A DNA stretch of 47,343 nt, filler included, from Jimgerdemannia flammicorona (lineage: Eukaryota), in assembly GCA_003990765.1 (NCBI GenBank). It is 2 parts of 2 records of this genome, joined end to end, with 100 filler letters (N's around TTAATTAATTAA, not from the genome) between each part and the next. Parts side by side here need not be neighbours in the genome. Positions count along the whole stretch, not along the records: positions 1 to 23,627 come from RBNJ01001088.1; 1 more part is not named here. One strand, 5' to 3'. This document shows positions 2,240 to 41,717 of the stretch, in pieces. Made by a program: the position numbers and the translations under genes. Position 1 is the first letter of the stretch. Every line of letters starts with the position of its first letter. Under the pieces are notes generated by a model. It saw only the letters and a list, made by a program, of their open reading frames with translations. It ran no database searches and was not told the origin of the DNA.

Positions 2240-5200
2240 ATGCTCATTTTCAAAGGCCTAGTCAAAGGAAAAGAAGTTCAAGTACTCATAGACAGCAGAG
2301 CTGCAGGGAACTTCATCAATCAGAATCTCATCAAAAGTCTCAAGATCCTCACCAAGCCTGTATCCAAGAATAATAGTATAGTTACTACAGATGGTACTCT
2401 ACACCCCATTGAGTCAATTACTACTAAACTGCCTATCAAAATCTAGAAATATTGGGAATGAGTAGACTTCGAGGTTGCATCACTAGGAGATCATAACCTG
2501 ATCTTAGAAAAACCCTAGCTTACAAAACACAACCTAGATATTGATTGGTGTAAAAATGAAGTCACCTTACTTTAAGATGGAGCCAATATCACTATTAAGA
2601 CAAATAAGACCACAAGCAAGATCTAGATTGTAATACTGTCAGCTATACAGTACAAGAGAGTACTCAAGAAGACAATGCATGCCTTTATTATAATGATTCA
2701 TTCCAAGAAACAAGACAAGAGACTATCAGTTAATGAAAGTGTCAAGTTACTGCTAGAAGAATTCAAGGATATCTTTCCAGACAAGCTACCTGATCTACTA
2801 CCTACACAAGAAATTAATCATGAAATTGAACTAATCTCAAGGGCTGTACCATCTAAGAAACACATATACTACATATCATCACTTGCAATTGAAGCAGTCA
2901 AGAAGGAACTAGAAGAACTACTTATATGAGGAGCCATCTAGTCAAGCAAATCTCCTTATGACTCACCAGTCTTATTTATCAAGAAGAAGGATAATACTCT
3001 GTGAATGTGCATAGACTACCATGCACTCAACAAACTCACTGTCAAGAACTGCTATTCACTACCCTTGATTGATCAAATCTTTGATACTCTCAAGAATGTC
3101 AAGCATTTCACCAAGTTAGACCTTATATCAGAATACCACCAGATTCAAATCAAGCCAGAAAACATTCCCAAGACTGCATTCATGACTCTCTTTGAACTCT
3201 ATGAATTCCTGGTCTTAGTATTTGGTCTCACCAATATACCTGCCACATTCTAGACTCTGATGAACAAGATATTCAAGGACTAACTATTTATTTCCTGTTG
3301 GTATATCTTGATGATATCCTGATCTTTAGTACAACTAAAGAAGAACACCTCAAACACATTCAAATAGTCCTGGAGATCCTGCAAAAACACAAGCTTTATG
3401 CTAAGCTCAAGAAGTGTGAATTCTTCAAGGAACAAGTCGAATACCTTAGCCACATTGTCTCTGCACAAGGAATTCAAGTAGACCTACACAAGATAGAAGC
3501 AATTGAAGAATGTCCCATTCCATTGAACCTCACAGAACTCTGATCCTTCCTTGGTCTAGCTGGCTACTACTACTACTTTGTTAGAAACTTCTTTGGTATT
3601 GCCAAATCACTGACTAATCTCATGAGGAAGGCCCTATACTCAGATTACTATATATCCTACATCTGAGATCTCTTCTGTCAACAAGCCTTTCAAGAACTCA
3701 AGAACCACCTGACCCATGCTCTAGTTCTGCATAATGCAGATTGAGACCTAAAATTTATAGTTACTACTAATATATCAAATTTTGCCATTGGAGTAGTCCT
3801 GTTACAAGATGATGGCAAAGGACATCACTCTAATGCTTTTGAGTCCTGCAAGCTAGCCCTAGCTGAACAAAAGCCAGCTACTCATGAGAAGGAACTACTA
3901 GCAATAATACATGTACTAGATTACTGGCAATGCTATCTAGAAGGTATTGAGTTTGATATCATTTCCAATCATCAATCTCTCAAGTACATCAACACTCAAT
4001 CTACTCTGTTATATCTATAAGCCAAGTAGAGCCTCAAGCTTCAAACCTTGAATCTGGTGATTATATACAAGCCTGGAAAGATACTTATAGTATCAGATGC
4101 CTTATCAAGATGCCCAGATCTCACCACAATTATACAGGTCACCTTGGCATCAGAATTCCTAGACCAAATCAGACAAGCTTACAAAGAAGATATAGTTGCT
4201 ACTAGAGTTTTCTCAAATGAGCTCAAGGATACATATACTGTCAAGAACAACCTGATCTATCATCAAGATCAAGTCTACCTATCTGAAAACATGAACCTAT
4301 GCTATAAGGTTTTACAAGAACACTATGACTCCCCTCTTGCTGGTCACCTGGGAATTGAGAAGACTATTAAGAACATCCAATGCTACTACTATTGGCCAAA
4401 TATGGTCAAGGAAATCAAGAACTATATTACCAGCTATGATCTATATCAGTACAACAAGTCTACCAACTAAGCACCAGCTGATTTTCTAAAACCACTGTCA
4501 ATTTCTACTAAGAAATTCAAGTAAGTCATGATGGACTTTGTAACTTAACTACCCCAAACTCAATCTGATGCTAATGCTATTGTCATATTCATTGACCACC
4601 TAATCAAGACTATGGTTGCTGAACCAACTACTATCAATACTACTGTATCTGAAATTGTAAGAATCTTCTTCAAGTCCATCTTCTGTCACTATGACCTACT
4701 ATGAGTAATTGTCAGTAATCATGATCCCAAGTTCACCACTCACTTCTGGCAAACTCTCTTTAAGACTCTGGAAACCCAATTGGCTATGTCTACTGCCTTT
4801 CACCTACAAACTGATGAACAGACCAAGTGCATGAATAGAACCCTAGAACAAATACTTAGAAACTATGTTTCTTATAAGTAAGATGATTGAGATCACTATA
4901 TGACTTATGTAGAGTTTGTATATAACAATGCCATCCAATCATCTACTAGTCTTTCCCCTTTCCAGTTACTCTACAGTTAAGATCCTGAGACTCCTGCAAG
5001 TCTATTCTTTTAAGAAAACCAGTCAAATACAAGTCCCAACTACTAAGAACCTTATAGACAAAATGGATGAACTACTCAAGATTGCTACCATGAATCTTCA
5101 AAAGACTCAACAGTATCAAGCTAAGTATGCTGAAAAGAAATATTATGATATCACTTATACTGTTAGAGATCAAGTTCTACTATCTACCAAAAATCTCAAG

Positions 5201-5605
5201 ATACAATCTCAAGTCAACTGCCCTTTGAACAAGTTCCAACCCAAGTATATCAGATCTTTTGAGATTACTGAACAAGTCTCTGCATCCTCCTACTGTCTCA
5301 AGCTATCTGAAACCATGAGAGTACACCCAGTCTTTCATGTGTCACACCTCAAGACCTAGAACTAGTCACTACTCTACCCTGGTTGAATTCCTAAGCCTTC
5401 TGCCCCTGTGATTATTGAAGACCATATTGAGTATAAAGCTGAGAAAATTCTTGACAAACAAATCTACCACCACTGTTCTGAATATCTAGTCAAGTGGATG
5501 AGTTATCCTGAATATAATGCTACCTAAGAACCACTGGTCAACCTCAAGAACTCTCAAGATCTAGTTCAAGACTTTAATACAAAATATATTGCCCAATCCC
5601 TATAG
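2240..5605 (+). pseudogene. pol: Element A pol (aspartic protease, RT, RNase H, integrase, chromodomain)
   Basis: VLIDSRAAGNFI; MCIDYHALNK; VYLDDILIFS; HYDSPLAGHLG; VHPVFHVSHLK; chromodomain YKAEKILD..YLVKWMSYPEYNAT*EP at ~5430-5580. Confidence 0.95.
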
Positions 5606-5714: not shown

Positions 5715-5825
5715 CCAAAATGAAGCTACTAGCTGGGTTTGAACCCCTCTCAGTTGGTTAGTCTGATAATAGGCCCTCTGCTCTATATGAGGATTGCCAA
5801 TCTCTGTCAATGCACTAATACAAGT
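5715..5825 (-). other. Degraded antisense A-box/hairpin/B-box (tRNA-like) module
   Basis: GGTTTGAACC at 5736-5745 (decayed GGTTCGAACC) and GAGGATTGCCAATCTC hairpin at 5789-5804; collinear with 14005-14100. Confidence 0.4.
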
Positions 5826-5893: not shown

Positions 5894-5906
5894 AAGAAGA
5901 GAGGGA
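5894..5906 (+). promoter_or_regulatory. Polypurine tract of element A
   Basis: AAGAAGAGAGGGA immediately before TGTAAC. Confidence 0.85.
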
Positions 5907-6719
5907 TGTAACAATTTCACAGTCATTTTTAGTCTTAGTATATTTTTACATCTTTTAGTTAGTCTTTTCTTGATATTTCTTGAACATTCTACTATGTTCT
6001 GCCATCTTCTACTTACTTAGAAACCTTCTCTTAGTGCTCAGACATCACTAGAACATTCTTATCTTTCCTTAGCACTAAGTATCTTATCTTAGCTAGTTAT
6101 GGAATCTTTCAGAATATTTATTATATCTAATACTCTCAAATAAATTAAATCAATTTAAATCAAATCAAATTGAGAGTGATTCAAATTAAATTGAATTGGG
6201 AATTTTTCAATTCAAATTAAATTGAGATCTGATTTGATTTAAAATTGAAAGTCAAACTTTGAAATACAATAACTTGATGAAAACATGTATAAATTTGATG
6301 AATTTTAGCTTGTTGGATTTATCTTGATAAGGTGAATCCAGTACAATAAAGATTATTAAATTTGGATATTTTTCAATCAAGTTATTGAATTTTAAAAATT
6401 TAGATTCAAATTGAAATTCAAATCAAATTAAACCTTAATTTGATTTGAATCAAATTGAATTGAGCTATTGTAGAATAGTATTAGTCAGCTTTGCTGAGAA
6501 CCTATTTCTTGATATTTCTCTTTCTTTCCAAGATCCTTCCAGATCTTTCTTTCAGATCTTATATAAATATCCTTATTCTCTGCCTGAATAAAGCTCAGAA
6601 TATTTTCTCAGAAATTCTTCAAGAATACTTGAACCTTTAAGTATCTCTTTGAGCTATTTTAGGTCAACTAGAACTTTCAGATTTAGCTGCTTCCTCTTTA
6701 AGCAACTAGAACCATTACA
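5907..6719 (+). repeat. Element A 3' LTR (contains a ~350-bp insertion)
   Basis: TGTAACAATTTC...CCATTACA; collinear with the 5' LTR except 6119-6465. Confidence 0.93.
6119..6465. mobile_element. Non-autonomous foldback/MITE-like insertion with central ~120-bp hairpin
   Basis: Absent from the two sister LTRs and flanked by TATT/TATT. Hairpin CAATAACTTGAT(6267)...ATCAAGTTATTG(6387) with inner TGGATTTATCT/AGGTGAATCCA. Flanks are TCAAA/TTGAA pentamer arrays. Confidence 0.75.
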
Positions 6720-6810
6720 CTGTAAGTCATTTTTCACAAGTATTAAATCTTTTAATATCTGCTAAAACTTTGACAATTGCCAAAAGTTTAACATCTGTGA
6801 AATCTTCAAT

Positions 6811-9753: not shown

Positions 9754-10516
9754 CGAACAGATACGACGCGACGAGCGATCACGTGACCCGGCGATGACGT
9801 CATCATACGATCGAGCGCGACATATGAATAGTGAGTGACGAACGAACGAACGATGCGAAACGACGCGGAAAACGATATCCAGCTTATCCCCAACAATCGG
9901 CGCCGCAGCAACAGTTGCCACAGCAGCTGATCATTGCCTAGTAATTGAGGTCCTGATCACAAAGTTGTTTTTACCAAAAAAACCACCTGACAAAGGTCAC
10001 CATCACAAACCTCATTATAGTTACCAAATTAGTCACTCATACTTAGTCAGAAATCGCGGACCAACTTGTATAAATACCCCCCAGTTTCTATCCGAAATAA
10101 AGCAGTTTTAGTTCAGTCCTTGATACAAGAATCAAGTCCCCCCCACACACACACATTCCCCTGAGTCTTAGTAATGACATCTAAGTGACTCTAGTGTTTC
10201 TGACTAAACTCCAGAAGCCTAGCTAACTTCTGCCAGAACTGAGACCGATATATAAATCCCCAAAGACTTAAGTAAACCCATTGAACCTGAATTCCAAGGC
10301 GAATTCAGTCTGTGCACAGCAAAGAACAAGACCCTCAAAATAGGGCACAAGAGAAAGACCTTTGAAAGATAAGGCACTGTCACTACAACTACTTTAAGCA
10401 AGCGCTTCCTCAACTGAAGGCTTCTTGGTACACATTGTGTACTAAGTCCCTAAGTAATAGTCCACTTCCCTAAATATCCAAAGGATAAGAGAGGGATAGA
10501 AGTGAGAGTTATTACA
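9754..10516 (+). repeat. Element C 5' LTR, CpG-rich U3
   Basis: Near-identical to 15203-16002; ends GTTATTACA; TATAAATACCC at ~10069. Confidence 0.93.
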
Positions 10517-10569
10517 ACTTGGTAGCAGCAGATTACCAGCTAAGAAGGCACCAAAGAACACACTCCTGA

Positions 10570-13500
10570 AGTTAGAACAAGACCAACCTTGGACAGGAGT
10601 AACCCCCAGAACCAACTGGAGAACCAACAAGGTTAACCTGACCCACGAAGGCAGAAAGATCACCCTGATACCCCAGGAAGGTACCAACCACCAAGGAATC
10701 GAAATCATCTCTGCCATTCAAATGAAGAGACTCTCTCAAAAAAAGGGAAACACCTATTTCATCTGTACAGTACAAGAAGTCACTGAAGCTACAAGTAGCC
10801 CAATTCCAACAGAAGCTCAAGAACTGTTTGAAGAATTTCAAGATGTATTCCAAGATCCTCAAGGACTTCCACCCAAGTGCCAAATCCAACATGGAATTGA
10901 TCTTATTCCAGAATCTGAACCCCCATACAAGAGTATCTACCAACTGGCCCAACCTGAGCTCAAGACCCTCAAGGATGAGTTGACCAAACTACTGGCCCAA
11001 GGATATATTGAACCTAGCCGCTCCCCATTTGGAGCCCCCATTCTATTTATCAAGAAGAAGGATGGCTCTCTGCGAATGTGTATTGACTACAGAGCCCTCA
11101 ACAAGATCACCATTAAGAACCGGTATGCCTTGCCTAGGATTGATGAGTTGCTACACCAAATCTTCAAGGCCAAGACCTTTTCTCTACTAGATTTATGAAA
11201 TAGCTACCACCAGATTCTCATTGATGAGAAGGACATTGAGAAGACAGCTTTCTGAACACGGTTTGGACACTACCAGTTCCGAGTCATGTCTTTTGGATTG
11301 ACCAATGCACCAGCAACATTCCAGTATCTGATGAACGATATCTTTGGACCACTCCTCAACATCTGCATCCTTGTGTATATTGATGATATACTAATCTACA
11401 GCGAGACAGTAGAGCTACACTACACCCACCTTAGACAAGTACTGACCCTTCTGCAAGAACACCAGCTCTATGCCAAGATGAGCAAGTGTAAGTTCTATCA
11501 AGACCAGATCGAGTACTTAGGACACATCATCTCTGCTGAAGGTATCAATGTGGACCCCCGAAAAGTATCAGCCCTTAAGAATATCCCTATCCCTACTACC
11601 CTCAAGCTGCTCCAGCACTTTCTGGGTATTGCCAGTTATTACCGAAGGTTTATCCAAGGATACTCTGCTATTGCAGCCCCATTGACCAGCCTGGCCCATA
11701 AAGGAGTGAACATCAAAGCCGAATGGACCCCCGAATACACCCTGGCTATGGACCATCTCAAGAGACTCCTTACCAAGGCCCCAGTGCTAATTGCACCTGA
11801 TCCTACCAGACCATTCACTCTGACCACAGATGCCTCTGACATTGCTATTGGAGCAGTACTCAGTCAAGAAGACTGCCCAGTGGCCTACCTTTCCCAGAAG
11901 CTCAAGCCAGCTGAGACCCGGTATACCACCCACGAGAAGGAACTCCTGGCTATTGTCACTGCACTCCAGGAATGGCACCACTTCCTCCTAGGACAGCCAT
12001 TTGTGGCCTACACTGACCACCATGCACTGCGGTATATTCACACACAGCCCATGCTGACCCACAGACAAGCCCGCTGGATGGAAATCATTGCCAACTTTGA
12101 TATGGAAATCAAGTATATTCCAGGCAAAACCAACCATGTGGCTGATGGTTTCTCCAGATACATGGAAGACGAACTTGTCTTCATGGTCGAAGTAATTGGA
12201 GACCTTACCCAAATGATCAAGGATGGCTACCAGCAAGACAACCCCCTGATGAACTTCCTTCAATTCTGCCAAGATCCTGAGGCCAAGGTTCCAGAACCCA
12301 TGAGGCAGATGGCCAAGAGATTTACCTACCATGATAGACTTATCTACAGGGACCATGACAGAGTGGTTGTACCCAACAATGATACTCTGCGACTCAAGAT
12401 CATGCAGGAACTCCATGATACTCCTGCAGCAGGACACTTTGGTTTTGAAAAGACCTACAACCTCCTCTCAAGAGAGTTCTATTGGTCAAAGATGACCAAG
12501 GATATCGAAGACTTTGTGGCCTCATGCGAGATGTGCCAAAGGTTCAAAAGTGGTAACAAGCTACCAGCAGAACTCCTGCAACCCTTGCCTATCCCGAGTC
12601 ACAATTGGGACCAGATTGTAATGGACTTCATTGTCCAACTCCCCAAGACCAAGGCAGGATGAGATGCCATTGTGGTATTCATAGACCGCCTAAGTAAACA
12701 AGCTCATTTTGTACCCACCAAGACCACTGCTACAGCACCAGAGATTGCCGAGATTTTCCTCAACCAAGTATTCAGGCTACATGGCATGCCTAGCACTATT
12801 GTATCTGACTGAGATGCCAAGTTCACAAGCAATTTCTGGAAGGCATTCTTCTCCCTCCATGGAACCAAGCTGAAGTTCTCTACTGCCTACCACCCTCAGA
12901 CTGATGGTCAAACCGAGCAAACCAACAGGACTCTCAAACAGATGCTTAGTATCTTCTGCTGTTACAAGCAAAATGATTGAGACAAGTACCTAGCCCATGC
13001 CGAGTTTGCCTACAACAACAGTCAGCAAACCTCTACAAAGAAGACTCCATTCTTCCTGAACCATGGTCAACACCCAAGGACCCCTAGTACTACCGTGAAA
13101 TCAGCAGTCCCAGTAGCCCAAGACCTGGCCGAGACCATTTCTGACCTTACGCGAATGACAAGAGATGCTCTCATAGAAGCACAAGACTACCAGACCAAGT
13201 ACGTGAACTTGAAGTGAAGAGAAGCATCCTACAATATTGGTGATATGGTCATGCTTAGAACAGACCACCTCCACCCTGACACCCTGGCACAACAACTAGC
13301 CAAGAAACTCCATGCTAGAAGAATTGGACCATACAAGATTGTGGAAAAAATCAGCGAAGTTAACTACAAGTTGCAACTTCCCCACAATATCCAAGTACAC
13401 CCAGTATTCCATATCAGCCAATTGGTGGACTACCATGAAAACCCATTCTCCGAGCATACAGTTCCACCACCACCCCCAATTAGGATCAATGATCATGAGG

Positions 13501-13703
13501 AATTCGAAATTGAGGAAGTACTTGACCACAAGGTCTGCAAATATCCTAAAACAGTCAAGCGCTTTTTCCTGATCAAGTGGAAGGGTTACCCCACCCATGA
13601 TGCCACCTGGGAAAAAGAAGAAGCTCTGAAGAATACACGTACAGCCCTCCAGGACTACATGGAAACACTCACCCCCCAGCAAAGGAAGGAACTACAGCTC
13701 TAA
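10570..13703 (+). pseudogene. pol: Element C pol (PR C-terminus, RT, RNase H, integrase, chromodomain)
   Basis: [77 protein letters not shown] few TGA stops from CGA/TGG. Confidence 0.97.
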
Positions 13704-14004
13704 GTATAGAAGCACACAGCAAGCAGAAGGATACCACATATTTTTATCTGGAAATATATAATACTGAATATTGTGAAAAAAGGAACACTATGGATAACCA
13801 ACAAGAAGATATCTGAATAAAAGAACAATCTAGTACTATATAGCAAAATGCATTTGAACAACTCCATTTCATGCCATCTGTGTCATCTCCGCAGGATGAT
13901 GACGGATGCTTCATGTGAAACTTAGGAAAGCCAACAATGTCGAAACCAGTCTAAGTCCATCCACATGACAGATATTGTTACTAGGAATTGCCTCAGATTA
14001 CAAG

Positions 14005-14100
14005 AAAAGTCTATTTCTGAGAGGTTCGAACCCCCAGCCACGACAATGGGAGCCCTCACCCTAGACAAGGATGGCCAGTCCTCGCAAATGCGCCAACCAG
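14005..14100 (-). ncRNA. Putative Pol III-type tRNA-like module (A box, 7-nt-loop hairpin, B box, T4)
   Basis: Minus strand reads TGGCGCATTTG, GAGGA-CTGGCCA-TCCTT, GGGGG-TTCGAAC-CTCTC, then TTTT. There is no good acceptor stem, so this is not a canonical tRNA. Confidence 0.45.
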
Positions 14101-14274
14101 ATAAAAAAAAAATGGACCAAGACCTGTTAACTCTATATAACCACAGATGGGTGACGAGATCTTTGAAATCAGGATTTTCCTCATGTGACCAGCATATGCT
14201 CCGCTTACAGCACAGGTCATGCATTTTGCCAGAAAGCGTGACCAAAGGAAGGTCACATCAGATGGGCGAATAAG

Positions 14275-14285
14275 TATAAATACCC
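14275..14285 (+). promoter_or_regulatory. Internal TATA box upstream of ORF-X
   Basis: TATAAATACCC, identical to the LTR TATA context, 73 bp before the ATG at 14348. Confidence 0.55.
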
Positions 14286-14347
14286 AAGGCAAGAATACCC
14301 CACAACTCTCATCCCCCTTTTCCTTACAAAGAAAAGACAAGACAAGA

Positions 14348-15178
14348 ATGCCTGCTACCCGCCGCCAAACTGCCCACCATAGCCAGCCCCTCCCAAGTCA
14401 GGTTGACTGCCTCTTTGGACATATCCAGGTTGCCATCCAAGGAAGGAACCGCCACTCAGAGGCCCTTAACCTCTCCAGCCAGGATCTAGGACACTATGTC
14501 CTCAACCGCCATGAAGTCATCGAAAGAGCCTACCTTGCCACTAGCCACCTAGAGATCTGGCATGAATATGAGATTGGCCACCAACTTCTCCAACATACAA
14601 AGGACCTACCCACAGATCAAGTCTCTGATTGGACTCACCTAGACAGGCATGAGCAAAGACTTACCAAGAAGGTCCATCAAATCATGCGCCATGTACCCTT
14701 CGCAATTCCCAACCTCAACTACATACAACTGAAGGACTTCCAGAACCTCTCTTTCCCTGAGGTCGATGCCCTAGAAGTCAAGGTCGCCCAAGAAGCCAAC
14801 TCCTGGATTGCCCTCAAGTCTACTGACTGTAAACCCTACTGGAGCCCCCTCCTGAATGACAATCCTGACCAATGGCTCCAAGGTCTCTCTGACCTCTTTG
14901 AAGGACCACCTATCCGAATGAATATTCCCAGGCATGAAGATCAAGAGCCCTACTTGGATGGCCCCAACTGCATCAGATGGAGAACCCCTACACTAGCACC
15001 TATTCCATGGCAAGAACCATTTGCAGACCTCATTGACTTCTCCATCCTGGACAGCGAGCCACCTGCAACCACCACCCCCCCTACCCCTGAAGAAGATGGT
15101 AATAACCCTGAGGAGGATTCCCCACCTTTCTCTCCCCTGGTTCTCAATTTCTCAATCAATGAGAACATTGATTTCTAA
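14348..15178 (+). CDS. ORF-X: intact 276-aa accessory protein of unknown function (acidic/Pro-rich tail)
   Basis: Stop-free ORF (MPATRRQT...) between pol and the PPT; aligns clearly with 41219..41566 (e.g. IPNL, NPDQ[WF]LQGL..[LV]F). Confidence 0.85.
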   Translation: MPATRRQTAHHSQPLPSQVDCLFGHIQVAIQGRNRHSEALNLSSQDLGHYVLNRHEVIERAYLATSHLEIWHEYEIGHQLLQHTKDLPTDQVSDWTHLDRHEQRLTKKVHQIMRHVPFAIPNLNYIQLKDFQNLSFPEVDALEVKVAQEANSWIALKSTDCKPYWSPLLNDNPDQWLQGLSDLFEGPPIRMNIPRHEDQEPYLDGPNCIRWRTPTLAPIPWQEPFADLIDFSILDSEPPATTTPPTPEEDGNNPEEDSPPFSPLVLNFSINENIDF

Positions 15179-15189
15179 GGAGGGAAGGA

Positions 15190-16002
15190 TGTAATAGAAT
15201 GACAAACAGATACGACGCGATGAGTGATGAGCGATCACGTGACCTGGTGATGATGTCATCATACGATCGAGCACAACATATGAATAGTGAGTGACAAACG
15301 AACGAACGATGCAAAATGACGCAGAAAACGATATCCAGCTTATCCCCAACAATCAGCACCGCAGCAACAGTTGCCACAGCAGCTGATCATTGCCTAGTAA
15401 TTGAGGTCCTGATCACAAAGTTGTTTTTATCAAAAAAACCACCTGACAAAGATTGCGATCACAAACCTCATTATAGTTACCAAATTAGTCACTCATACTT
15501 AGTCAGAAATCGCAGACCAACTTGTATAAATACCCCCCAGTTTCCATCCGAAATAAAGCAGTTTTAGTTCAGTCCTTGATACAAGAATCAAGTCCCCCCC
15601 ACACACACACATTCCCCTGAGTCTTAGTAATGACATTTAAGTGACTCTAGTGTTTCTGACTAAACTCCAGAAGCCTAGCTAACTTCTGCCAGAACTGAGA
15701 CTGGTATATAAATCCCCAAAGACTTAAGTAAACCCATTGAACCTGAATTCCAAGGCGAATTCAGCCTGTGCACAGCAAAGAACAAGACCCTCGAAATAGG
15801 GCACAAGAGAAAGACCTTTGAAAGATAAGGCAAACCAGAAAGACCTTTGAAAGATAAGGCACTGCCGCTACAACTACTTTAAGCAAACGCTTCCTCAAAC
15901 TGAAGGCTTCTTGGTATACATTGTGTACTAAGTCCCTAAGTAATAGTCCACTTCCCTAAATATCCAAAGGATAAGAGAGGGATAGAAGTGAGAGTTATTA
16001 TA
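15190..16002 (+). repeat. Element C 3' LTR
   Basis: TGTAATAGAATGAC...GTTATTATA, with a private tandem duplication of AAGACCTTTGAAAGATAAGGCA at ~15810-15861. Confidence 0.93.
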
Positions 16003-16896
16003 GTACTCTAAGACCAAACTCCAGCTCAGTCTCATATCTTATCAATATTTACCAACTATTAGTCTATTGGCTATAGTTTCTGTACAACCTCTTATTGATA
16101 CTTTATATCAATACTAATCTCAAATTCTATCAATAGTGAAATGCTCAATAGAAGTCTGTCTTATCTCTATATTACAGATCTCCATTGTATCACTCTCTCA
16201 TTACCAGACTAATGAAAACCAATATAGTGAGCTCTCTCTACTATATCCTACTAAAATCCCCTATACTGCAAGCACTTACTACTTCTAAGTTCAACTATCA
16301 ATAATAGATCTCCCAAAGAGCCTAAAGATGAGAACCTTGCCTCTTAGACCTTCTATATCCAATGTAACTCTCTGCCTCATAACTTAATAGCTATAAGAGA
16401 GTTACTTGTTAAAAGTACTGTTACATAGTTCTGGAAGAGGTTTCTGGAAGTTCTGGATATTCTGAAAGACTGTTTTCTTTAGGTCAAGATCAATCTTGTA
16501 TAGAGTACTTCCTCTATGCTTATTGATTTCAAGATCAGATTGATGTCTCAACCAAAGTCCTTTATTGGACTTATTCTGAATGTTCAGGATTTTCTATATT
16601 TCAGGAAGTTCAAGAAACTAAGACCAGCTTAGTTGAATCAGTATATCACTACTGACAATATCCAATTAGGAAATTTTATGATATGGTTAGGAGTGAGACC
16701 AAATAGAATACAGATTTGCTTAAGAGTAATTTGGGGTTTATTAAATAGGTTTATTTACTATTCATGATATTACTATACTAGGAGTAGTATGTGAACAGAT
16801 ATTGAGAGGGAGTGTTCAGGAGTTCTTGTATTTGGATCTGTTCAAGTCTGAGTTTCTGAGTCTGAGAGAGGAGGTATTTATACTAATAGAGGGCTA

Positions 16897-17471
16897 TCTG
16901 AACTAGTACTCCTAATGAGTCAATTTAATCTAGATTGGATTCAGATTGATTCAGATTGAATCTCATCCAGATCAACTCAGATGGGATTTGAATCCCATCT
17001 GGATGGATTTGAATCAACCATTGTTTTGATTTCCAAATTAGACAATTAAATGTTTACATCAATAACTCGATGAATAATCATCCAAATTTAATGATCCTGA
17101 TGTAATTTGAAAGCCCTTAATAAGGCCTATCTAATGACACTAAGAACATTGAAATCGAATCATATGTTGCTGAGTTATGAAGGAAAATGTCTGAATTACC
17201 AATTTTGGAAATTATTTGATTTGCCAATTTTGGAAATTTCATCAAATTGAACATTTTCCTTAATATCTTAGCAACACGTCATCCGATTTTAATGTACTTA
17301 GTATCATTAGAGAGGCCTTATTAAGAGCTTTCAAATAACACCAAGATCATTAAATTTGGATAATTATTTATTGAGTTATTGATGTAAACATTTAATTGTC
17401 TAATTTGGAAATCAAAACAATAGTTGATTTGAATCCCATCCAGATTGACTCATTTGGAGCACTAATCTGGA
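16897..17471. repeat. ~575-bp foldback (long inverted repeat) with hairpin-forming arms
   Basis: 17012-17190 is the reverse complement of 17251-17430. Outer arms are TAGTACTCCTAATGAGTCAAT/ATTGACTCATTTGGAGCACTA, with a possible CTA/CTA TSD. Confidence 0.9.
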
Positions 17472-17949
17472 CTATGCTAAATATGGATGTAGTACTTAGT
17501 ATCTTGCTGAGTCAGAATGCAGTCACATAGTGCAAGTGTGAACTAATATGTCAAGAGATCATCTGACTGTTGAGCCAGTATATAGTCATATTATATGATG
17601 CTAATCTAACTATACTAATGACTGCTGAGCTATCTATAGATTTAGATACTGTCTGGGTAGTCTTTGATGACATCACTATCAATAATATTATCTTTGATAA
17701 AGTAGTCATCTAGAAAGAGTGATTCTTGGATTACTTCTTTCTGTTTACTCAGATAATAATATATTGGGACTATATTACTATCTTACAGGATAGTATCATC
17801 TGTTTCATATACCAGATAAGGTATCAGTGGGCAGAGAAGGGATATATCATCTTCACTTTTATCAGATTCACTATCTGTATACCTTTTATAGATAACAGTG
17901 CTATAAGTTACAGAGTTGTAGTATGCTGACAGCTGTGACTTATTTCATT

Positions 17950-18718
17950 TATACTTGGAAGGTGGGGTTGTTGGTTTGATCTTGAGGGTTGTCTGGAGAT
18001 ATAGGTTATGTTCTCATTGTAGTTAAAGTAATTGAGCATAAATATAGGTTGGTACTCATACCAGTAGTCATTATCTCAATAGATCTCATAGGTGGTTATA
18101 AACTATTATAAGTTCATCAGTAGTGATCAGGGCTGGTAGAGATCCTTGGCTGGAGGTTATGTCAGCATTGGAGGGATCATTATCTTCTACTTTATTATTA
18201 TCGAACTAGATTATATTATAGATATCCTTCATAGTGTATCCAACTTAGGACATTTGTAGGATATAGTCATGGGAATATAGGAAGGTTCTGTCTGTGGTTT
18301 GAATATACTCAATATATTTGTAGTTGAGTTCTTGTACTATATCATTGATTTGACCATAGGACAGAGTGACAACTATTTCAGTAGTGGTAACTTAGAGATA
18401 GAGAATAAAGATACTATACTTATAAAAGAGTTCTTAGTGTTTATGGACAATGAGTTTCTGGTGTTGAGATATTTGGATAATATCTATATCATAGTAGTGT
18501 TCAATCATATCTTTCAGAAGACAGCTGATCTGGTAGTAGCTTGAGATTTGTCTGATTCAGTAGGCTTTGCTGAGCATGTTCAGGACATTCCATTGGACTT
18601 CTAGAAAGTAGAGAGGTACTAGGCTATGGATATTTATGAGGAGCAGAGGAGGTGTGGCTCGGTTAACAATGGTATTTCAAATGTCAGCATTGATATAGTT
18701 GTAGATCTCAGTAATCAT
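17950..18718 (-). pseudogene. ORF-X homologue inside family-D LTR
   Basis: MITEIYNY...ISSYYQISCLLK...KLIVHKH*ELFY...IL.L*VTT..IV.TLSYGQIND; the 3' end is approximate. Confidence 0.6.
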
Positions 18719-21700
18719 GTTTGTGTATATATTTAAGAGTTGTAATTGTTTGTTTAGTTTGTTGTAGTTCTCTGTTTTGATGTATCTGAGTGCTCAGTAT
18801 ATATACATTCAGTTCTGATTGGTAAGGTTCTGTTTGTATAAATATTATATTCCATGACTTCAAGTTAACTCAGCTTTGTATTCTGTGACCTCAGTTTGAC
18901 TCAGCTTTATGATCTTACATATAATTTCCAGATTTGTTCTAAGGGTGATGTATGATTTCAGTGACTTAGAGGTTGTGTACTTATAACAGCTCTCTTTAAC
19001 TACTAAGCTCTAAGGTAATACATCCTCTTTAGGAAGTCCACCAGACCTAGATCTCCTCTACCTACTGAAGGTACTAATATCTTCTAACTTATCTGACTCT
19101 GCCTCTCAGTCAATTTCAGTCTTTAGCTATCTTCAATAATCACTTCACTACTTAAGCCAGAAAGTTCAAGTAATATTCCAGATATTATAACTTTGGCAAC
19201 CAGTAGATATTAAGGATTGATATCTGTCTGGTAAGAGAAATGTGACACTCCTCTCAACCTCTAAGAACCTCTTCTCATTTCACCACCACTAAGCTCTAGG
19301 CAGGACTGATCTATATACTAATAGTAATATATCCAGATATCATATTATCTCTCCTATAGAGACAATAGTTCCTACAATATCTCTATCTATCAAACTATTT
19401 CTCAGTACTATTATCTCATACTTATACAAGTTCACAGCAGCCCTCAGCTCATAATATCAGTAACTAAACCAAGCCCAATTATCATATTATCAGCAAAGGC
19501 CTCAATCTTCCAGATAATCTTTAAGAATAAAAGCTCTAATATCTTATAGTGAATCCTGTCTATCAATGGCTCTAATAATAAAGTATATAGAATAGGAGAT
19601 AGTAAGTCTCTATGAAGAACTCCTCTCTCTAATAAGAATAAGACTCTATAATATCTATTATACAAAATTGCTATCAGGCTGCTCTCTAATAGACTAATTA
19701 TTAATAATTAGAATTAGTAAGAAATATCAATCCTTATCAATATCTTCTCTAGCCAGATGTATCATATCTAATTATAGGTCTTCTTCTGAACCAGGAAGAC
19801 TAATTGTCCATTCAGTCCACTAGTTTTTATCTTCTCAATTATGCTATAAGCCCAGGTCATCTCATCTCTAATCAGCCTATCACTAACAAAATCTCTCTGC
19901 TCAACTAACACCTATTGAGCACAACAATCACCTTTATGACCAACTTTCTGTCTATATCTAGAAGTATAATCAGCCTCCAATTCTTTCAATCCTCTCTCCT
20001 ATTCTTATATTTATACAGCAGTGCTTCTAGACTGAGATCCTGACCTCTAACTCACTCTCCAGATATAAGGATGAGATCATATAGTACTGTCATCTCCCCC
20101 AATACCCCTGGAACTCTCACCATCTTCTTCCAAAAGGTCCAAGATAGGCCATCTGTGCCAAGAGCCATGCTCTGTTTTGTTGCTAACAAGACTCTCAAAA
20201 TTTTGTCCTTCTGGACTAGTTGAATCAAGTCTCCAAAACTATTAATCTGTAGAGAGTACTAATCCTTCAGAGAGTACTCAATAGCTTTCTTATTAGCACT
20301 CTCTTCTTTCTTACTCTACAGACCTCATCTATTCTTCAAAGAACTCAGAATCCTCTGCATTCTATTTACTAGAGTACTCTCCTCATCAAGTACTTTATTT
20401 CACTACTATCTCACTCTCTTTATCTGAAGAAGTCTAGACAGATACCTAGTAGGTCTCTTGCCTTTCTCAAGCCTCTACCACTATAGCCAAGCTACCATAC
20501 TCTACACCCAAGTCTATTTCTCCTCTCTCAACACTCTCTTCAACTCCTCTACCTCCAGTTAGGCTTATTCTAACTATCATCTCACTTCAACATTTCTGCC
20601 TACTCTAACTATAACCTCTTCATCCTATGGGAGACCCACCTCACTCTCTATCTCTGCTGGACCCCTTTAAACCTACCAGGCTTACTCTAATATACTCTGA
20701 CTACCTTCTTTAGCTTTACTCAATAGACTCCTACTGAAGATCTCTCTCATTTCCAGCAAATAAATCTTCATCCCAATATCCTCTACTCAAGTATCCCACA
20801 ATCTCTTCTTCTCTAACAATAAAGAATTAAAATATTAATATTCAGTCTCATTCTACTCTCTTCTAACTAGCTATATCTCAATAGTTTCTAATAATCAGAC
20901 CATGAACACCACTCTACCTTTAAAGCTACCCAGATATTTATCTTCCATCATTTGATAGTCAGTATCTATTTACTCAATAAGTATAAACCCTCTAGTCACT
21001 CCACACTATCCTGCTAGTATTTACCAATGAACTTAGATGCTCTACATTCTCTCAAACATCCAGACTATCACTATAGCCTACTATATATCTCTCTCTATAA
21101 GTTCTATCTAATTGTATATTTTGTACTATTAAAGTCTTCACCCAATATATCTACACTAGCTTCAGCAAGTATATCATACTCATGAAATCTATCTAGCTAC
21201 TCTACTCAATCACTTCTAACTGCTGAGCAATAATAAGAGCCTACTACTACTGGATCTCACCCTGGCCTTTGCTACTCACTCTATACCAAGTAGTCTCTTT
21301 ATCCCCCAACTCCTCATAGTTCTCTCTTACTTCTTCATACCAGAATCCTCACCTTATTCCTCCAAACTACTATACTACCCCACTCTCTTATCTATATCAA
21401 TTTATTCAATTTTTTCTTACAGCATATATTCTATAGCAGAAAAAGATATGCCTCTAAACCCCACTGCTAAGCAAAAATGTTTTGACATCTCAAAGAGCCC
21501 TACAGACTATTCATATTCAATAAGAAAATTTTAGTTATACTATTTATAAAGAAATATTATTATGTTGCAGTTCTATCTCCTTCACAGTTCTACACTTATC
21601 TCCTTTATAGCTAAGTTCAGACTATACTCTATAATTGCTTCCTCTTCTTAGTATCTAATCCAGCCAGTATCTTTACAATCTTCTTATCATCCTTGACCTC

Positions 21701-22175
21701 TATCTCCTCCTTATACTTCTCACACACTATCTGTCAGAGCTACAATCTATACCTCTGCTTCTATCAGAAAGCAATACACTCTCTAGTAACTACTACCAAT
21801 TTAGCCTCTCTTATCATATCTACCTCATAATCTTCCTCTTCCAAAAATATAGCCTAAATCTCAGCTTTTACCTTGTCAACTACTCCATCACTCCTCAATA
21901 TCTTTGTCCAGAGTTCCTCACTAATATGTACAAGTCTACCTCTCTCAGCTCCTCTATAGCCAACTCATTCATCATTATACTCATCTATTACATATTACTA
22001 ATATATTTTCCTCCAGAGTTTTAGACCTCCTCTCTATCAGTAGTAGAGTATCTGTACTAGTTCTAGTAGACTCATTCTACTCCTTCTTAGGATCATACAA
22101 CTCATTCTCCTCTACTTCAATCATCTGCTCTCTCTTCATCATATATCTGATACTCTAAACTAGACCCTATATATG

Positions 22176-22721
22176 TTTTTTTTTTTTTTTTCACTTAAAC
22201 TCCTGTATTTATTACCAACTATTCTATATTATAATAATATAAAATAGCCTGCCCCTACCTAATCCTACAGGAGTTCTGCCCCCCTCCCCTCCCTCTCTCC
22301 ATTTTGCTAGAAGGTAACTACTCCTCTAGATATCCCAATTCTCTTCCCACTCTTTACATATATTGTTTTTATCAGTCTATGATAAAGATCTCCTATGGAT
22401 CTCCATCTCATCTACTAACCATTCAACAACTCCAATCAATAACTCCCACCTCACTACTCTTACCCTCAGTGCCAGCTTCTAGCTCTTCTCAAAAATATAC
22501 TACTAATGTTCAGAGAGCCCAATCCAAATGACAAGGGCCCACCCTACTGAAAGTTATTTATTACTAACTCCCACCACCAGCTACTCCTAAAGAGCATCCC
22601 ACCACTCCTCTGCTACTCCCATAAGAGGTCACACCCCAGCCAGTCATCAATCATCTATCAGTTGTCAAGAGTTCACACTCACTCAATCAATGTTCTTGAG
22701 TCTGAACCACCCCTCTCCTAC
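22176..22721 (-). mobile_element. LINE 3' end (same superfamily as 35802-36850)
   Basis: Poly(T) at 22176-22191 followed by CACTTAAACTC..TTTATTACC as in the young copy; encodes EGVVQTQEH*LSECELL. Confidence 0.75.
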
Positions 22722-23224
22722 TGTAAGTGCACAACCTTCAAGTCATCAAAATCTCATGTCACTCTCAGAATAAATTCAGAAATTACCTGCTAGATCATAT
22801 AGCTGAGTTAAACAGAAGTCACAGATCATAAAACTGAGTCAACTTGAAGTCATGGAATATAAGATTCATAAAACCAGGATCTTACTAATCAGGACCAAAA
22901 GCATATATTCTAATATATAGTATATCAAAATGAAGAACTATAATAAAACAAATAAACAACCACAACTCTCAAATATATACTCAGCTATGACTACTGAAAT
23001 CTATAACCACATTTATACTGATATTTAGAATACCATTGTCAATAAAGCCACAGCTCCCCTACTCCTTATAAATATCCATAACCTAGCACCAAGAACTCTT
23101 CTATGAGTAGAGCACCATTATTCCTCACCTCTAAGTTACTACTGTCAAAATGGTTGCAACCCTGTCCTATGGCCAAATTGATGACATGATATAAGAACTC
23201 AATCACAAGTATATTGAGTACATT
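22722..23224 (+). repeat. Family-D LTR 5' part with internally deleted ORF-X (ATG 22987)
   Basis: TGTAAGTGCACAACC start; reverse-complement homologue of 18300-18985; encodes TVKMVATLSYGQIDDMI*ELNHKYIEYI. Confidence 0.8.
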
Positions 23225-23627
23225 TGTAATAGAATGACGAACAGATGGGACACAACGAGCGACGAACGACGAACAGATGGGACACGACGAGCGACGAACG
23301 ACGAACGACGAATGACGAACGACGAGCAATCACGTGACCTGGCGATGACGTCATCATACGATCGAGTGCGACATATGAATAGCAAGTGACAAACGAACGA
23401 AACGACACGGAAAATGATATCCAGCTTATCCCCAATAATTGGTGCCGCAGCAACAGTTGCCACAGCAGCTGATCATTGCCTAGTAATTGAGGTCCTGATC
23501 ACAAAGTTGTTTTTACCAAAAACCACCTGACAAAGGTCGCGATCACAAACCTCATTATAGTTACCAAATTAGTCACTCATACTTAGTCAGAAATCGCGGA
23601 CCAACTTGTATAAATACCCCCCAGTTT
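23225..23627 (+). repeat. Family-C LTR (cut by gap) with expanded GACGAAC array
   Basis: TGTAATAGAATGACGAACAG...; homologous to 15190-15543. Confidence 0.93.
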
Positions 23628-23727
23628 NNNNNNNNNNNNNNNNNNNNNNNNNNNNNNNNNNNNNNNNNNNNTTAATTAATTAANNNNNNNNNNNNNNNNN
23701 NNNNNNNNNNNNNNNNNNNNNNNNNNN
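23628..23727. other. Assembly gap with artificial TTAATTAATTAA linker
   Basis: 44 N + TTAATTAATTAA (23672-23683; stops in all six frames) + 44 N. Confidence 0.95.
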
Positions 23728-23910: not shown

Positions 23911-26063
23911 AAGAAGGAACCTAAGTAGATATTGTATGAATTTGAAGATATCTTTATACTAATTTCAAGAATTTAAAAAAAAGATACTATATTACTATCA
24001 TGATCTAAATATAAGAGATATGGAGCCAATCTATCAAATAGCAAGACCAATTCTAACATTATATCATAAATAGTTTAGAGAAGAGATCAAGCAGATATAA
24101 GAAGCCAGCATTATTAAGAAGGCTATAAATCCATAGTTTTCACCAATTATACTAACTCTGAAAAAAGAAAGCAAGCTAGAAGAATTTATCTCAAGACTCT
24201 ATACAGACTATAGAAAGCTCAATGAGATTGCTAAGAAAGATCACTAACTATTATCCCTCATTAGTAATATCTTAGAAACACTAGGATATGAAATATAATA
24301 CTATACTATCTTATATTTATACTCAGAATTCTATCAAATTAGTCTCACTAAAAAAGCTAGTAAAAGTCAGCCTTCATTATCTCAGATGGAATCTATGTCT
24401 AGCTTTAAATACTATTTAAATATCTAATATCTCACTAAGTTTTCAGAGAATAATAAATAAGATCTTTTGAGATAATATGAGAAAATAAATAATAGTCTAT
24501 ATAGATTATACAATTATCTTCAGTAAGACAGTTAAAGAATATCTGAACTATATCTACTAAATCTTGCAGATATTGAGAGAGTGTAATATATTCATCAAGT
24601 TTAAGAAGTATAAATTTGCAGAAATTGAAATCTTCTACCTTGGACATATTTTCAATCAGACTGAAACCTATACAGACTCTATTAAGATTTAAGCAGTGAT
24701 ACCTTATCTAAGACTCACCATAGTTACTGAAGCTCAAGCCTATATAGGACTTACTACTTATTATAAGAGGTTTATTAAAGTATTCAACAATATTATACAT
24801 TATATCTATATATAAACTATTTAAGAAGGATACTAAGTTTAAATGAACTAGCAGGTTGTAATAAGCTTTTAAATATCTCATAGTCTAATTAATCCAAGCA
24901 CTCATCTTGAGAAGGTCTAACTAGTTTTAAGAATTGATCTTGCAGAGAGATATGTATAAGCTAAAAGGATACAGTTGAATATATAATTATATATCTCAGC
25001 TATAGAACTTATAGAGGAGAAAGAGTATATGAATTCTATAAGTTGAAGTACTTTATAGTTATTTGGACTGTAGAAAAGTTTCACTACAACCTTACAAGAA
25101 GATACTTTACTATTCTAACTGACTATTCAGCCTTCACTTAGCTATTAATCATAAGTAAACTTAAAGAAATATTTGCAAGTTAGATCATAAAGCCATATAT
25201 AAGTCTATGATATCATATATTACCTAGAAAGAACTAATGCTAATATAGATACTCTCTCACAGATCTTCCAAAGAATCTACAACCAGTAAAATAAAAATAA
25301 AATAAGAAACACTACTATAGAATTATCAACTATTTGAGACAGTAAAAGATATTCTAATATCTGAAAGAATAGATATAAACAATTATCAACAGAATCGGAA
25401 AATAATTTGAAACTAGTAAAGATATACTAAAAAAAGAAAAATTACTAGTTAAATCAAAGTATAAGAAGGAATAAGCAATAAAGTTAGTATATAAACTTAG
25501 TTATCTAGAAGAAACAAATACCTATTATAAAGTAAGAAGAAAAATATACATAGTAGTCAGGAATAGTGAAAGATATTAGATAATTTATCAAGACCTATAA
25601 TAAATACCAAAAACAGAAGCAATCAAATACTAGAGTCAGTAGATATAGAATCATTATTATTTACTAATATTGTAATATGTATATACAATTAGTCCCCTAT
25701 CTCTGATATTAACTGATAACTAATATGTCATTATTATTATAGACCTCTTTATGAAATTGATAGAAGCAGAATCTCTCACAGAAGCCAATATATAGTCAAT
25801 TACTGATTTCTTCTGTAGAGAAATCATCTGCTGATTTAAGACTTCAGAAAAAGTAATAATAGAGAGAAGAATAAAATTTATGAACCAGCTCTCTAAGATT
25901 TTCTACAAGAAGTATAAAATTTGATACATTAGAATCATAGCTGCTTATTATTCTTAGAAAAATAGATAGATAGAAAGAACTAATAAGACTCTCAAGAATA
26001 TTATTACTAGGATCTATAATAACTATGAAAATTGGGACCACCATCTGTAAATAGCATTATCTG
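23911..26063 (+). pseudogene. pol: Highly degenerate family-B-related pol (RT-RH-IN)
   Basis: Collinear with the reverse complement of 33690-35780 (e.g. ..RLYTDYRKLN.., IWTVEKFHY, RTNANIDTLSQ). Confidence 0.85.
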
Positions 26064-26071: not shown

Positions 26072-26969
26072 TGTAACAATTTCACAATCATATTTAGTCT
26101 TAGTACATTTTTCACATCTTTTAGTTATTCTTTTCTTGTCTTTTCTTGAATATTCTACTTTGTTCTGTCACCTTCTACTTGCTTAGAAACCTTCTCTCAG
26201 TGTCCAGACACCACTAGAACATTCTTGTGTTTTCTTGGCACCAAGCACCTTATCTTAGCTAGTCATGGAACCTTTTGGAACATTGTAGAATAGTATTAGT
26301 CAGCATTGCCGAGAACTTATTTTTGGCATTTCTCTTTCTTTCCAAGATCCTTCCAGATCTTTCTTTCAGATTAAGTATAAATACCCTTGTTCTCTGCCTG
26401 AATAAAGCTCAGAATATTTTCTCCCAGTAATCCTTTGAGAATACTTGAACCTTTAAGTATCTCTTCAAGCTACTTTAGGCCAACCAGAACTTCCAGATTT
26501 AGCCACTTCCTCTTAAAGAAACTAGAACTATTATACTTGGTAGTAGCAATATCATTACACCTTGCCTTATTAAGAAACCTCACAGAATTCAGAAACCAGT
26601 CACAACTAGTCACATGAATCCAAAATGAGCTACGAAGAGATAGTCTACTAGCCAGACCTCTTGGCTACAGAAGAAGCAGGAGGATCACAGCTCAACATAG
26701 AAGATATGATCAATACTATGGCCTACCAAATTCAAGAACTTCAAGTACAACTAGAATAGCAAAAAACACAAACTATAGAAACATCACATCCTGCCATAGC
26801 ACTAGTCAGTTTCAAGCCACTCAAGCTAGATACCTTTGATGGCCATTGAGGAGGACTATCTACAGATGCATGCATCTTCCAATTGGATCAATACTTTGAG
26901 CTCACAAGAATGGAAAATGACATGTAAGTCCAATTTGCCAGCACACTCCTCCAAGGAAACGCAGCCATC
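26072..26969 (+). mobile_element. Family-A 5' LTR (26072-26535), PBS and gag 5' part
   Basis: Collinear with 279-1164; homology stops after GCAGCCATC. Confidence 0.92.
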
Positions 26970-27254
26970 AGAGGGCCCCACCTTTCTCAGCTACCATTCA
27001 CATTACACACACTTTACAACACACTTTCAAGTCATTTATTGGAGAAAGGTACTAAGGCAATGCTCACTAAGAATGGGTAGAAGATGCCACCAACTTCATG
27101 GAAGCCCTAGATCCAACAGGAAGAAGAGGAATCAACTATCTCCAAGACCCCTCCACTGGAGCCAGATGGGCACACCTCAACCTCAGAGCTTAGAGGCTCC
27201 CTGCTATTAGAGCCTCAGCCCAAGGACAGCCTGAACTCAGTAAAAATGTTGCCC

Positions 27255-27657
27255 AGTATGCTCTGCTACATCCAAAGGCCAAACCCCCGACCAAAGCTCA
27301 TCCAGTAGATATAGGATATGATCTTCACAGCCTGGAGGATGAATCCATTAAGCCTGGAAAAACATTCATGATCAGAACAGGACTAGCCATGCAGTCACCC
27401 CAAGGAGCTTTCGTCCTATTAATCTCAAGGTCTGGACTTACCTGACAAGGAATAACTGTAGAAGGAGGAACCATTGACCCAGAATATATAGGTAAAATCA
27501 AGGTCATCCTATACAATAGCAGTATAGAATGGTACTGAATTATTAGAGGACAGAAGATTGCCAAAGCAGTCTTCAAGAAGGTTAAGACTCTACAATTACA
27601 AGAAGTCTCCAAACTGACTGAAGGAACAAGACAAGCCAAAGGATTTGAAAGTTCAGA
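27255..27657 (+). pseudogene. dut: Element E dUTPase upstream of RT
   Basis: LLHPKAKPPTKAHPVDIGYDLHS..IRTGLAMQSP..SRSGL..EGGTIDPEYIGKIKVIL..GFESSD. Confidence 0.92.
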
Positions 27658-31033: not shown

Positions 31034-31073
31034 AGGATTATCTGAGGACAGACCATCCTTTAGTAGGGACTGA

Positions 31074-41716: not shown

Positions 41717-41717
41717 T

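Follow-up and report, generated by a model that had tools for sequence, protein, structure and literature searches.

ORF-X, a conserved sense reading frame with its own candidate promoter between pol and the 3' LTR of a chromodomain Ty3/Gypsy element in Jimgerdemannia flammicorona

To our knowledge, extra genes are rare in LTR retrotransposons, and we know of a function for almost none of them. Foamy viruses carry the accessory genes Tas and Bet near the 3' LTR, with an internal promoter. In plant LTR retrotransposons, extra reading frames between pol and the 3' LTR (aORFs) form a recognised class, as set out in the parts of two sources that deal with them (Vicient & Casacuberta 2020, PMC7264820; Retand TRP28, PMC11963269). 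According to those parts, aORFs are conserved across copies and lineages, their function is unknown and suspected to be regulatory, and orientation separates two kinds, since those in sense are env-like and the well-studied non-env cases (Grande, RIRE2 and Retand) are antisense (PMC7264820, PMC11963269). A narrow full-text literature search yielded no account, for a chromovirus or a fungal element, of a sense, non-env ORF downstream of pol.

We analysed a stretch of 47,343 nt from Jimgerdemannia flammicorona (GCA_003990765.1), hereafter the window, which consists of two parts joined end to end, the first (1-23,627) being RBNJ01001088.1; parts that stand side by side here are not necessarily neighbours in the genome. 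An earlier note on this DNA had proposed that a single accessory protein family, called ORF-X, is shared by five distinct Ty3/Gypsy families. Our analysis points to a narrower conclusion: it is reasonably likely that ORF-X is a genuine sense aORF of one chromodomain Ty3/Gypsy lineage, with a putative TATA promoter and, as its most likely role, that of an adaptor or regulator. As an orphan, it is an addition to the known class of LTR-retrotransposon aORFs.

The window is AT-rich (GC 26-46%). Self-comparison and tblastn searches with pieces of the element C pol reveal that it is made up of LTR retrotransposons, nested and in part decayed. At the joint between the parts, two stretches of 44 N each (23628-23671 and 23684-23727) are filler. 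The elements and fragments are arranged as follows.

278-742 and 5906-6721, plus strand: LTRs of element A, with pol at 2543-5575 that ends in a chromodomain, and a gag, with zinc knuckle, in the customary position
9756-10514, plus strand: 5' LTR of element C, found by self-comparison, with a PBS-like TGGTAGCAGCAG after it at about 10519
10506-13703, plus strand: pol of element C, with protease tail, RT, RNase H, integrase, SH3 and chromodomain in one frame
15205-16000, plus strand: 3' LTR of element C, 91.8% identical to the 5' LTR
23320-23627, plus strand: third, partial LTR of element C, found by self-comparison
24077-26063, plus strand: B-like RT fragment
26074-27038, plus strand: A-type 5' fragment
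28126-30326, plus strand: pol in the internal region of element E
32359-40051, minus strand: element B1
40275-42815, plus strand: the F stretch, 2.5 kb of AT-rich DNA between B-type LTR pieces
43742 to the end of the window, minus strand: element B2

Across the window, transitions predominate among the differences between repeat copies. The two LTRs of element C differ by 27 transitions (16 of them at CpG) against a single transversion, and B1 and B2 by 403 transitions against 81 transversions, mostly in CpA/TpG context. Short, closely related contigs, again with mainly transitions as differences, span the whole stretch in all four sequencing runs considered (DNA or of unknown type).

Element C, the chromovirus in which ORF-X resides, is itself damaged. 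Its pol holds six internal stops in 1065 codons, and both gag and the N-terminus of the protease are missing, so that the protease tail follows directly on the 5' LTR and PBS. Since the protease is cut in mid-domain, the loss of gag looks like an internal deletion, and this copy, being a deletion derivative, cannot tell us if transposition requires ORF-X. Between the pol of element C and its 3' LTR we mapped the following features.

14040-14095, plus strand: conserved non-coding block downstream of the chromodomain and upstream of ORF-X, with counterparts in element A (5764-5815) and at the beginning of the metagenomic contig L001
14275-14280, plus strand: TATAAA box, a candidate internal promoter that precedes the ATG of ORF-X by 73 nt
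14348-15178, plus strand: ORF-X, from the ATG at 14348 to the TAA at 15176-15178, 276 codons with no internal stop
15177-15189, plus strand: polypurine tract, which overlaps the ORF-X stop codon and lies directly before the 3' LTR, where LTR similarity begins at 15205

The coordinates and the open frame are exactly as first proposed. ORF-X starts 645 nt past the pol stop. The absence of stops from its 276 codons, set against the broken pol of the same element, has a probability of 0.21 and is not significant. Scans of the window for tRNAs and Rfam families gave no matches, and the conserved block, which contains GGTTCGAACC, is therefore not a recognisable tRNA. Element A, a chromovirus related to C, has kept this block over about 50 nt, together with a similar polypurine tract, yet it lacks ORF-X. 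The strand in this region is compositionally skewed, being rich in A and C, and antisense frames of more than 100 codons are present as well.

A second, degraded member of the family occurs elsewhere in the window.

41022-41914, plus strand: copy F, a degraded ORF-X homologue with no pol adjacent

The homology of C and F, which had been called clear, is borne out by a tblastn search of the window with the C protein (34.7% identity over 176 aa, E 2.6e-33) and by a transition-tolerant alignment of the DNA (z = 19.5). Copy F carries four internal stops within 41021-41716 and two frameshifts, one just past its start at 41022, a conserved ATGCCT, and one within the tail; tblastn with the element C pol pieces found no pol near it.

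Relatives outside the window are few and environmental. A word-based search returned one relative of similar length, P0005, with 65% identity, and found no longer or fused forms. Searching 1,835,955,588 protein representatives by hmmsearch with a three-sequence profile, we obtained matches to five of them (E 1.7e-122 to 2.7e-13), or seven proteins when cluster members are counted. All seven are metagenomic (ENA, JGI/IMG), unnamed or labelled 'hypothetical', and all are open frames that can be aligned along their length. Three of them form a C-like group (P0005, P0010 and P0007) and three an F-like group (P0006, P0011 and P0008), with P0009 as an outlier, and the two lineages are 35-42% identical to each other. 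A scan of metagenomes with ORF-X recovered a single locus, the 1535-bp contig L001, with an ORF of 291 codons whose DNA is 69% identical to C over 636 nt. The junction of stop codon and polypurine tract is the same as in C (L001 1238-1269 against window 15165-15196, 90.6% over 32 nt). Scans of viral contigs with the family alignments of ORF-X and of the E-type frame discussed below gave no matches.

The ORF-X protein evolves under purifying selection. Over 269 codons compared between C and L001 by the Nei-Gojobori method (NG86), pN is 0.25 and pS 0.68, dN 0.30 and dS 1.8. The resulting dN/dS of about 0.16 comes from a single pair with dS near saturation (pS 0.68) and is thus approximate, but the direction is clear. 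By part, dN/dS is 0.08 for the core (the first 200 codons) and 0.52 for the tail (62 codons). That ORF-X is a chance frame in A/C-rich DNA and encodes nothing might be suggested by the skewed strand and the long antisense frames, but it is hardly credible in view of the excess of pS over pN, the dN/dS of 0.16 and the seven intact environmental ORFs, alignable along their length.

The same data bear on the origin of the gene. ORF-X could be a piece of a host gene that an ancestral element captured and carried along with no service to itself, and the absence of the frame from the related chromovirus A, with its upstream block and similar polypurine tract, would fit such an acquisition. Genes captured downstream of pol and ahead of the 3' LTR are known to give rise to aORFs, according to the parts of the literature that treat their origin, which also describe captured genes as typically present in one or few copies (PMC11963269, PMC7264820). 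ORF-X, however, comes in two lineages only 35-42% identical, with start context, TATA box and stop/polypurine junction conserved. Purifying selection is strong (core dN/dS 0.08), and neither the 1.84 billion representatives nor the proteins of near or greater length held a cellular homologue. We regard capture of this kind as distinctly improbable.

With respect to expression, the TATAAA at 14275 is the sole one in the 4690-nt interior of element C (GC 0.47), a placement with a chance of 0.022 by shuffling. L001 likewise has one TATAAA in its 1535 nt, 80 nt upstream of its ATG (chance 0.027, by shuffling). The corresponding box of copy F is as follows.

40931-40936, plus strand: TATAAA, 91 nt upstream of the copy F ATG

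By shuffling, its chance is 0.11, which is weak alone in AT-rich DNA. No ATG intervenes between the TATAAA and the start of ORF-X in element C, and the start context A-ATGCCT is common to C, L001 and F. We infer from this arrangement that ORF-X would be transcribed from its own TATA-box promoter some 70-90 nt upstream of the ATG. The putative mRNA would be subgenomic, starting shortly past the TATA box and ending at the poly(A) site of the 3' LTR. We also compared the context of the LTR TATA with that of the internal one and rejected a link between them, the 12-nt identity being within chance (score 24, against a null mean of 18.9 and a maximum of 32).

The protein itself resembles nothing characterised in the collections searched. 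Pfam gave nothing above cut-off for the window protein and six relatives, a PDB profile search with the family reached a best E of 1, and Foldseek with the ORF-X model gave no match at E <= 0.001. A match to an already characterised domain, one of the outcomes named in advance as fatal to the proposal, was accordingly not encountered by any of the three routes. In a protein atlas, both ORF-X and the E-type frame have only neighbours that are weak, unnamed or below 0.9; Closter_coat and Translat_reg are common to both queries, at 0.86-0.89 against a lead threshold of 0.9. No DNA-binding domain or NLS was identified in ORF-X. No TM-like segment was seen in three proteins of the C/F family, whose maximum Kyte-Doolittle 19-mer values are 0.43-0.72, and the earlier view that ORF-X is not gag, pol or env is upheld by this hydropathy (maximum 0.72) and by the lack of any Pfam match.

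AlphaFold2 models of ORF-X are of low confidence (pLDDT 33.6 with three sequences, mean 46.8 with nine). They suggest an all-helical core at about residues 17-185, followed by an acidic, proline-rich tail (about residues 190-276) that is probably disordered. The core is mildly acidic, with a pI of about 6, and the tail has a pI of about 4.1; tails of full-length family members bear a net charge of -13 to -19 and contain 8-18% proline. In the nine-sequence family alignment (A2), the end of the core is marked by a highly conserved LL(N/Q)DNPDQ(W/F)LQGL...F(E/Q)GPPI, and the tail holds three conserved short motifs: IRWR(S/T)P; DLIxF(S/E), behind which acidic residues stand; and P(L/M/W)VLNF, close to the C-terminus. 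We take the hydrophobic motifs in the acidic tail to resemble acidic activation domains and SUMO- or adaptor-binding motifs.

These properties have consequences for two ideas about function. The acidity of core and tail argues against the nucleic-acid binder that had been suggested, and with a core pI of about 6, a tail pI of about 4.1 and a net tail charge of -13 to -19 such a role is unlikely. A displaced or replacement gag-like capsid might be considered for an element that has lost its gag and in which the protease tail directly follows the 5' LTR and PBS, the more so as the low-confidence model is all-helical and a weak atlas neighbour (0.89) is a 'coat protein'. This idea is nevertheless very unlikely to be right: ORF-X has no match to Retrotrans_gag or any other gag family in Pfam, alignment A2 is devoid of a zinc knuckle or CCHC pattern, and the protein is acidic and has no basic nucleic-acid-binding part. 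Moreover, the missing gag of element C looks like the product of an internal deletion, with the protease cut in mid-domain, and in the related element A a normal gag, zinc knuckle included, stands where it is expected. Judged from its sequence, ORF-X is most likely not a structural, envelope or nucleic-acid-binding protein.

Taken together, ORF-X lies between pol and the 3' LTR, recurs across copies and lineages, is under selection and contains no known domains, gag and pol domains included. For the favoured reading of ORF-X as a sense aORF with its own promoter, the product would be soluble and in two parts, a helical domain at the N-terminus and a disordered, strongly acidic tail bearing short hydrophobic motifs. 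It may act in trans, as a protein-protein adaptor or as a regulator of the expression or chromatin state of the element, and the recruitment of a host factor by an acidic, activation-type tail is one possibility. Our best guess of a trans-acting adaptor or regulator draws on composition and on the likeness of its motifs to familiar ones.

The extent of the family is where our results depart most from the earlier note, which had drawn five further frames into it.

17950-18718, minus strand: D1, which forms an inverted-repeat pair with 22724-23224 and has no similarity to ORF-X
30521-31033, plus strand: ORF after pol in element E, a family of its own, with five internal stops and an ATG in the +1 frame relative to pol, whose last 17 nt it overlaps
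32831-33278, minus strand: post-pol frame of B1, with many stops and one frameshift, its putative ATG overlapping the pol stop
44229-44688, minus strand: post-pol frame of B2, with stops in frame, its putative ATG overlapping the pol stop

The peptides on which the proposal had been built are largely real, as 14 of the 15 quoted strings occur at the places and on the strands assigned to them; the exception, 'TIAKRIHKLF', is missing and spans a 10-nt indel in B1. The kinship read into them is another matter. Beyond F, tblastn with the C protein found nothing in the window below E 0.63. We scanned 3138 six-frame chunks of the window with the C/F HMM, using reversed sequence as a control, and the scores for E (9.6 bits, E 0.09), D2 (6.7) and B2 (3.0) compare with 6.8 reached by the control. 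The match in E falls at profile positions 154-192, outside the region of the proposed motifs. By tblastx among the post-pol regions only the integrase end shared by E and B was recovered, and DNA alignments of C and F with D1, D2, B1 and B2 gave z values of -1.7 to 1.4. The links of B, D and E to C/F are thus no better than chance by tblastn, HMM and tblastx and, for B and D, by DNA alignment.

For D, the two claimed copies (D1, and D2 at 22987-23224) are the arms of an inverted repeat, and no similarity to C/F is detected by HMM, tblastx or transition-tolerant DNA alignment. Six-frame Pfam searches of the D region (16001-23320, 7.3 kb) returned no domain above cut-off, and D as a Ty3/Gypsy element is therefore not supported. 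The count of five distinct Ty3/Gypsy families does not hold either: pol is present in C, E and B, there is none near F and no Pfam domain in D, and the integrase ends of E and B are related.

The post-pol ORF of E is a conserved family in its own right, not detectably related to ORF-X by sequence comparison. With X placed at its internal stops, it has five intact relatives in the database (63-70% identity), and the E-type protein is about 170 aa long with an acidic C-terminal tail. An HMM of this family matched only E in the window, the runner-up scoring 6.1 bits, less than the 10.8 of the reversed control, and no TATAAA occurs in the E region (27000-31100). The B frames may be decayed examples of an E-like arrangement, as in both of them a putative ATG in the +1 frame overlaps the stop of pol, by 8 nt in B1 and 11 nt in B2. 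Their scores do not exceed 3.0 bits with the C/F HMM, and with the E HMM they fall below the listed matches. Of the five stops in the B2 frame, two are sense in B1 by a transition, two are shared and one is of another kind, which is too weak to indicate an ancestral ORF.

It could still be argued that the post-pol ORFs of C/F, E and B belong to one very fast-evolving family whose homology lies below profile detection. All of them are in sense in the interval from pol to the 3' LTR, a helical N-terminal part is combined with an acidic tail containing W/F in the C/F proteins as well as in E, and visual inspection picks out, 22 residues apart, a Y-x-I-G-x-Q-L motif and a further helix-like motif in C, F, B and E. 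Furthermore, the best non-self match of the C/F HMM lies in E, in the very frame singled out earlier (9.6 bits, E 0.09), and the two queries share the atlas neighbours Closter_coat and Translat_reg, below 0.9. These regions were, however, picked by eye for their similarity, so that the recurrence of the motifs is not independent evidence, and the HMM match in E (profile positions 154-192) is not in the motif region. When the C/F family (A2, nine sequences) and the E family (A4, six sequences) were aligned by hhalign, the probability was 0.17%, with E 0.35 and a score of 14, and the best path differs from the alignment of the motifs, which it does not pair. The E HMM is without matches in C, F, B and D (6.1 bits against a control of 10.8). 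The architectures differ too, with ATGs that overlap the pol stop in the +1 frame in E and B, and a start 645 nt past pol with its own TATA box in ORF-X. A single hidden family is hence unlikely. The hhalign comparison was the very check by which the earlier note had proposed that its idea might fail, and its outcome for E, no significant match at 0.17%, leaves one accessory family in chromovirus and non-chromovirus lineages alike unsupported. What survives of the conserved or exchanged accessory factor then envisaged is a conserved accessory gene, on the strength of its recurrence and a dN/dS of about 0.16, while its sharing among five lineages does not. A single family exchanged among five lineages would have been far more surprising, and it is not upheld.

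A bolder reading can be speculated upon, in which ORF-X is a trans-acting regulator with its own promoter whose tail recruits a host transcription, SUMO or chromatin factor, thereby switching on the LTR or blunting silencing, and in which the Ty3/Gypsy lineages found here (C/F, E and perhaps B) either gained such regulators each on their own or share a single one, by now too diverged to be recognised. We consider this conjunction doubtful. Returning to the sense aORF of one chromodomain lineage, we contend that ORF-X, being compact, intact and selected, with a candidate promoter and natural variants, offers a practical entry to the function of retrotransposon non-structural proteins, and it could inform on expression control, host-factor recruitment or defence against silencing. 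The presence of a second, unrelated post-pol ORF family (that of E) within the same 47-kb window suggests that accessory genes may be commoner here than the gag-pol picture of textbooks would have it.

Compared with the plant aORFs, as far as they are covered in the parts of the two sources cited above, ORF-X is likewise an extra frame between pol and the 3' LTR that recurs across copies and lineages; it differs from them in being sense yet without a TM or signal segment, acidic, resident in a chromovirus and preceded by a candidate TATA box (PMC7264820, PMC11963269). The env-like ORF3 of errantiviruses and of Athila/Tat-type plant elements is, like ORF-X, a sense ORF after pol, whereas ORF-X has neither a signal peptide nor a TM helix (maximum Kyte-Doolittle 19-mer 0.72) and is an acidic protein of 276 aa that is predicted to be helical. 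Closer at hand, the post-pol ORF of E agrees with ORF-X in its sense orientation, its place after pol, its status as an orphan family with intact environmental relatives and its acidic C-terminal tail, but the two have no detectable homology, and the E frame overlaps the pol stop in the +1 frame, has no TATAAA and encodes only about 170 aa. As to the Tas/Bet genes of foamy viruses, no similarity of sequence or fold was found by PDB profile search or Foldseek and no DNA-binding region was identified in ORF-X; the likeness is one of analogy only, and it lies in a position just before the 3' LTR, a candidate internal promoter and an acidic C-terminal region. If the regulator reading were true, ORF-X would be a Ty3/Gypsy counterpart of the accessory genes of complex retroviruses.

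Element C, one of two related plus-strand chromoviruses (Ty3/Gypsy) in the window, is an internally deleted, non-autonomous copy, since its 5' LTR and the PBS-like TGGTAGCAGCAG abut the protease tail directly; both gag and the protease N-terminus are missing (9756-10560). Just past its 3' polypurine tract lie approximately 13 nt (TGTAATAGAATGA) that are not matched by any sequence ahead of the 5' LTR match. A third, partial C-type LTR (23320-23627) ends directly before two runs of 44 N that resemble an assembly gap (23628-23727), where structure is untrustworthy.

A block of non-coding DNA, about 50 nt long, is conserved in C, the related chromovirus A and L001, a 1535-bp metagenome contig carrying a homologue of ORF-X, the accessory gene of C:
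14040-14095, conserved block in C
5764-5815, conserved block in A
1-52 of L001, conserved block in the contig

Its position is the same in all three, following the chromodomain and preceding the polypurine tract, and in A and C it is itself preceded by a GGTTCGAACC-like motif. A has kept the block although it lacks ORF-X. Scans of the window for tRNAs and Rfam families gave no hit, so the block is no recognisable tRNA or Rfam family.

A-type sequence also occurs directly against the internal region of element E, an unrelated Ty3/Gypsy element:
26074-27038, LTR and some 500 nt of leader/gag, both A-type (84% identity to 281-1164)

Either the element is a chimera or the junction arose by nested insertion and truncation; no LTR pair of E was found within the window.

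Decay of the repeat copies is driven by transitions, both in C (9756-16000) and between B1 and B2, two minus-strand Ty3/Gypsy elements (32359-35650 vs 43742-47040). A CpG context accounts for 16 of the 27 transitions in the young C LTR pair, and the context between B1 and B2 is mostly CpA/TpG. The pattern fits deamination of methylated cytosine and/or a RIP-like process. Soil-metagenome contigs carry C/G at many positions where the window has T/A.

Two near-perfect palindromes were also observed (6201-6456 and 16997-17445), one of them inserted in the 3' LTR of A, together with a pair of inverted repeat arms (18302-18983 vs 22724-23224) in the domain-free D region, with about 4 kb between them.

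Downstream of pol, E carries a conserved reading frame matching no Pfam family:
30521-31033, plus strand, acidic-tailed post-pol ORF (about 170 aa)

Five intact environmental relatives (P0012-P0016) were found, of which P0015 reaches upstream across the integrase end. The start ATG of the ORF, in the +1 frame, overlaps the final 17 nt of pol. Putative start sites were likewise located in B1 and B2:
33264-33278, minus strand, putative ATG overlapping the pol stop of B1 (+1 frame, 8-nt overlap)
44674-44688, minus strand, putative ATG overlapping the pol stop of B2 (+1 frame, 11-nt overlap)

In B1 and B2, a TATAAAA occurs about 85 nt upstream of the putative ATG, within the end of the integrase coding region. 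The +1-frame overlap of these putative ATGs with pol resembles the arrangement in E.
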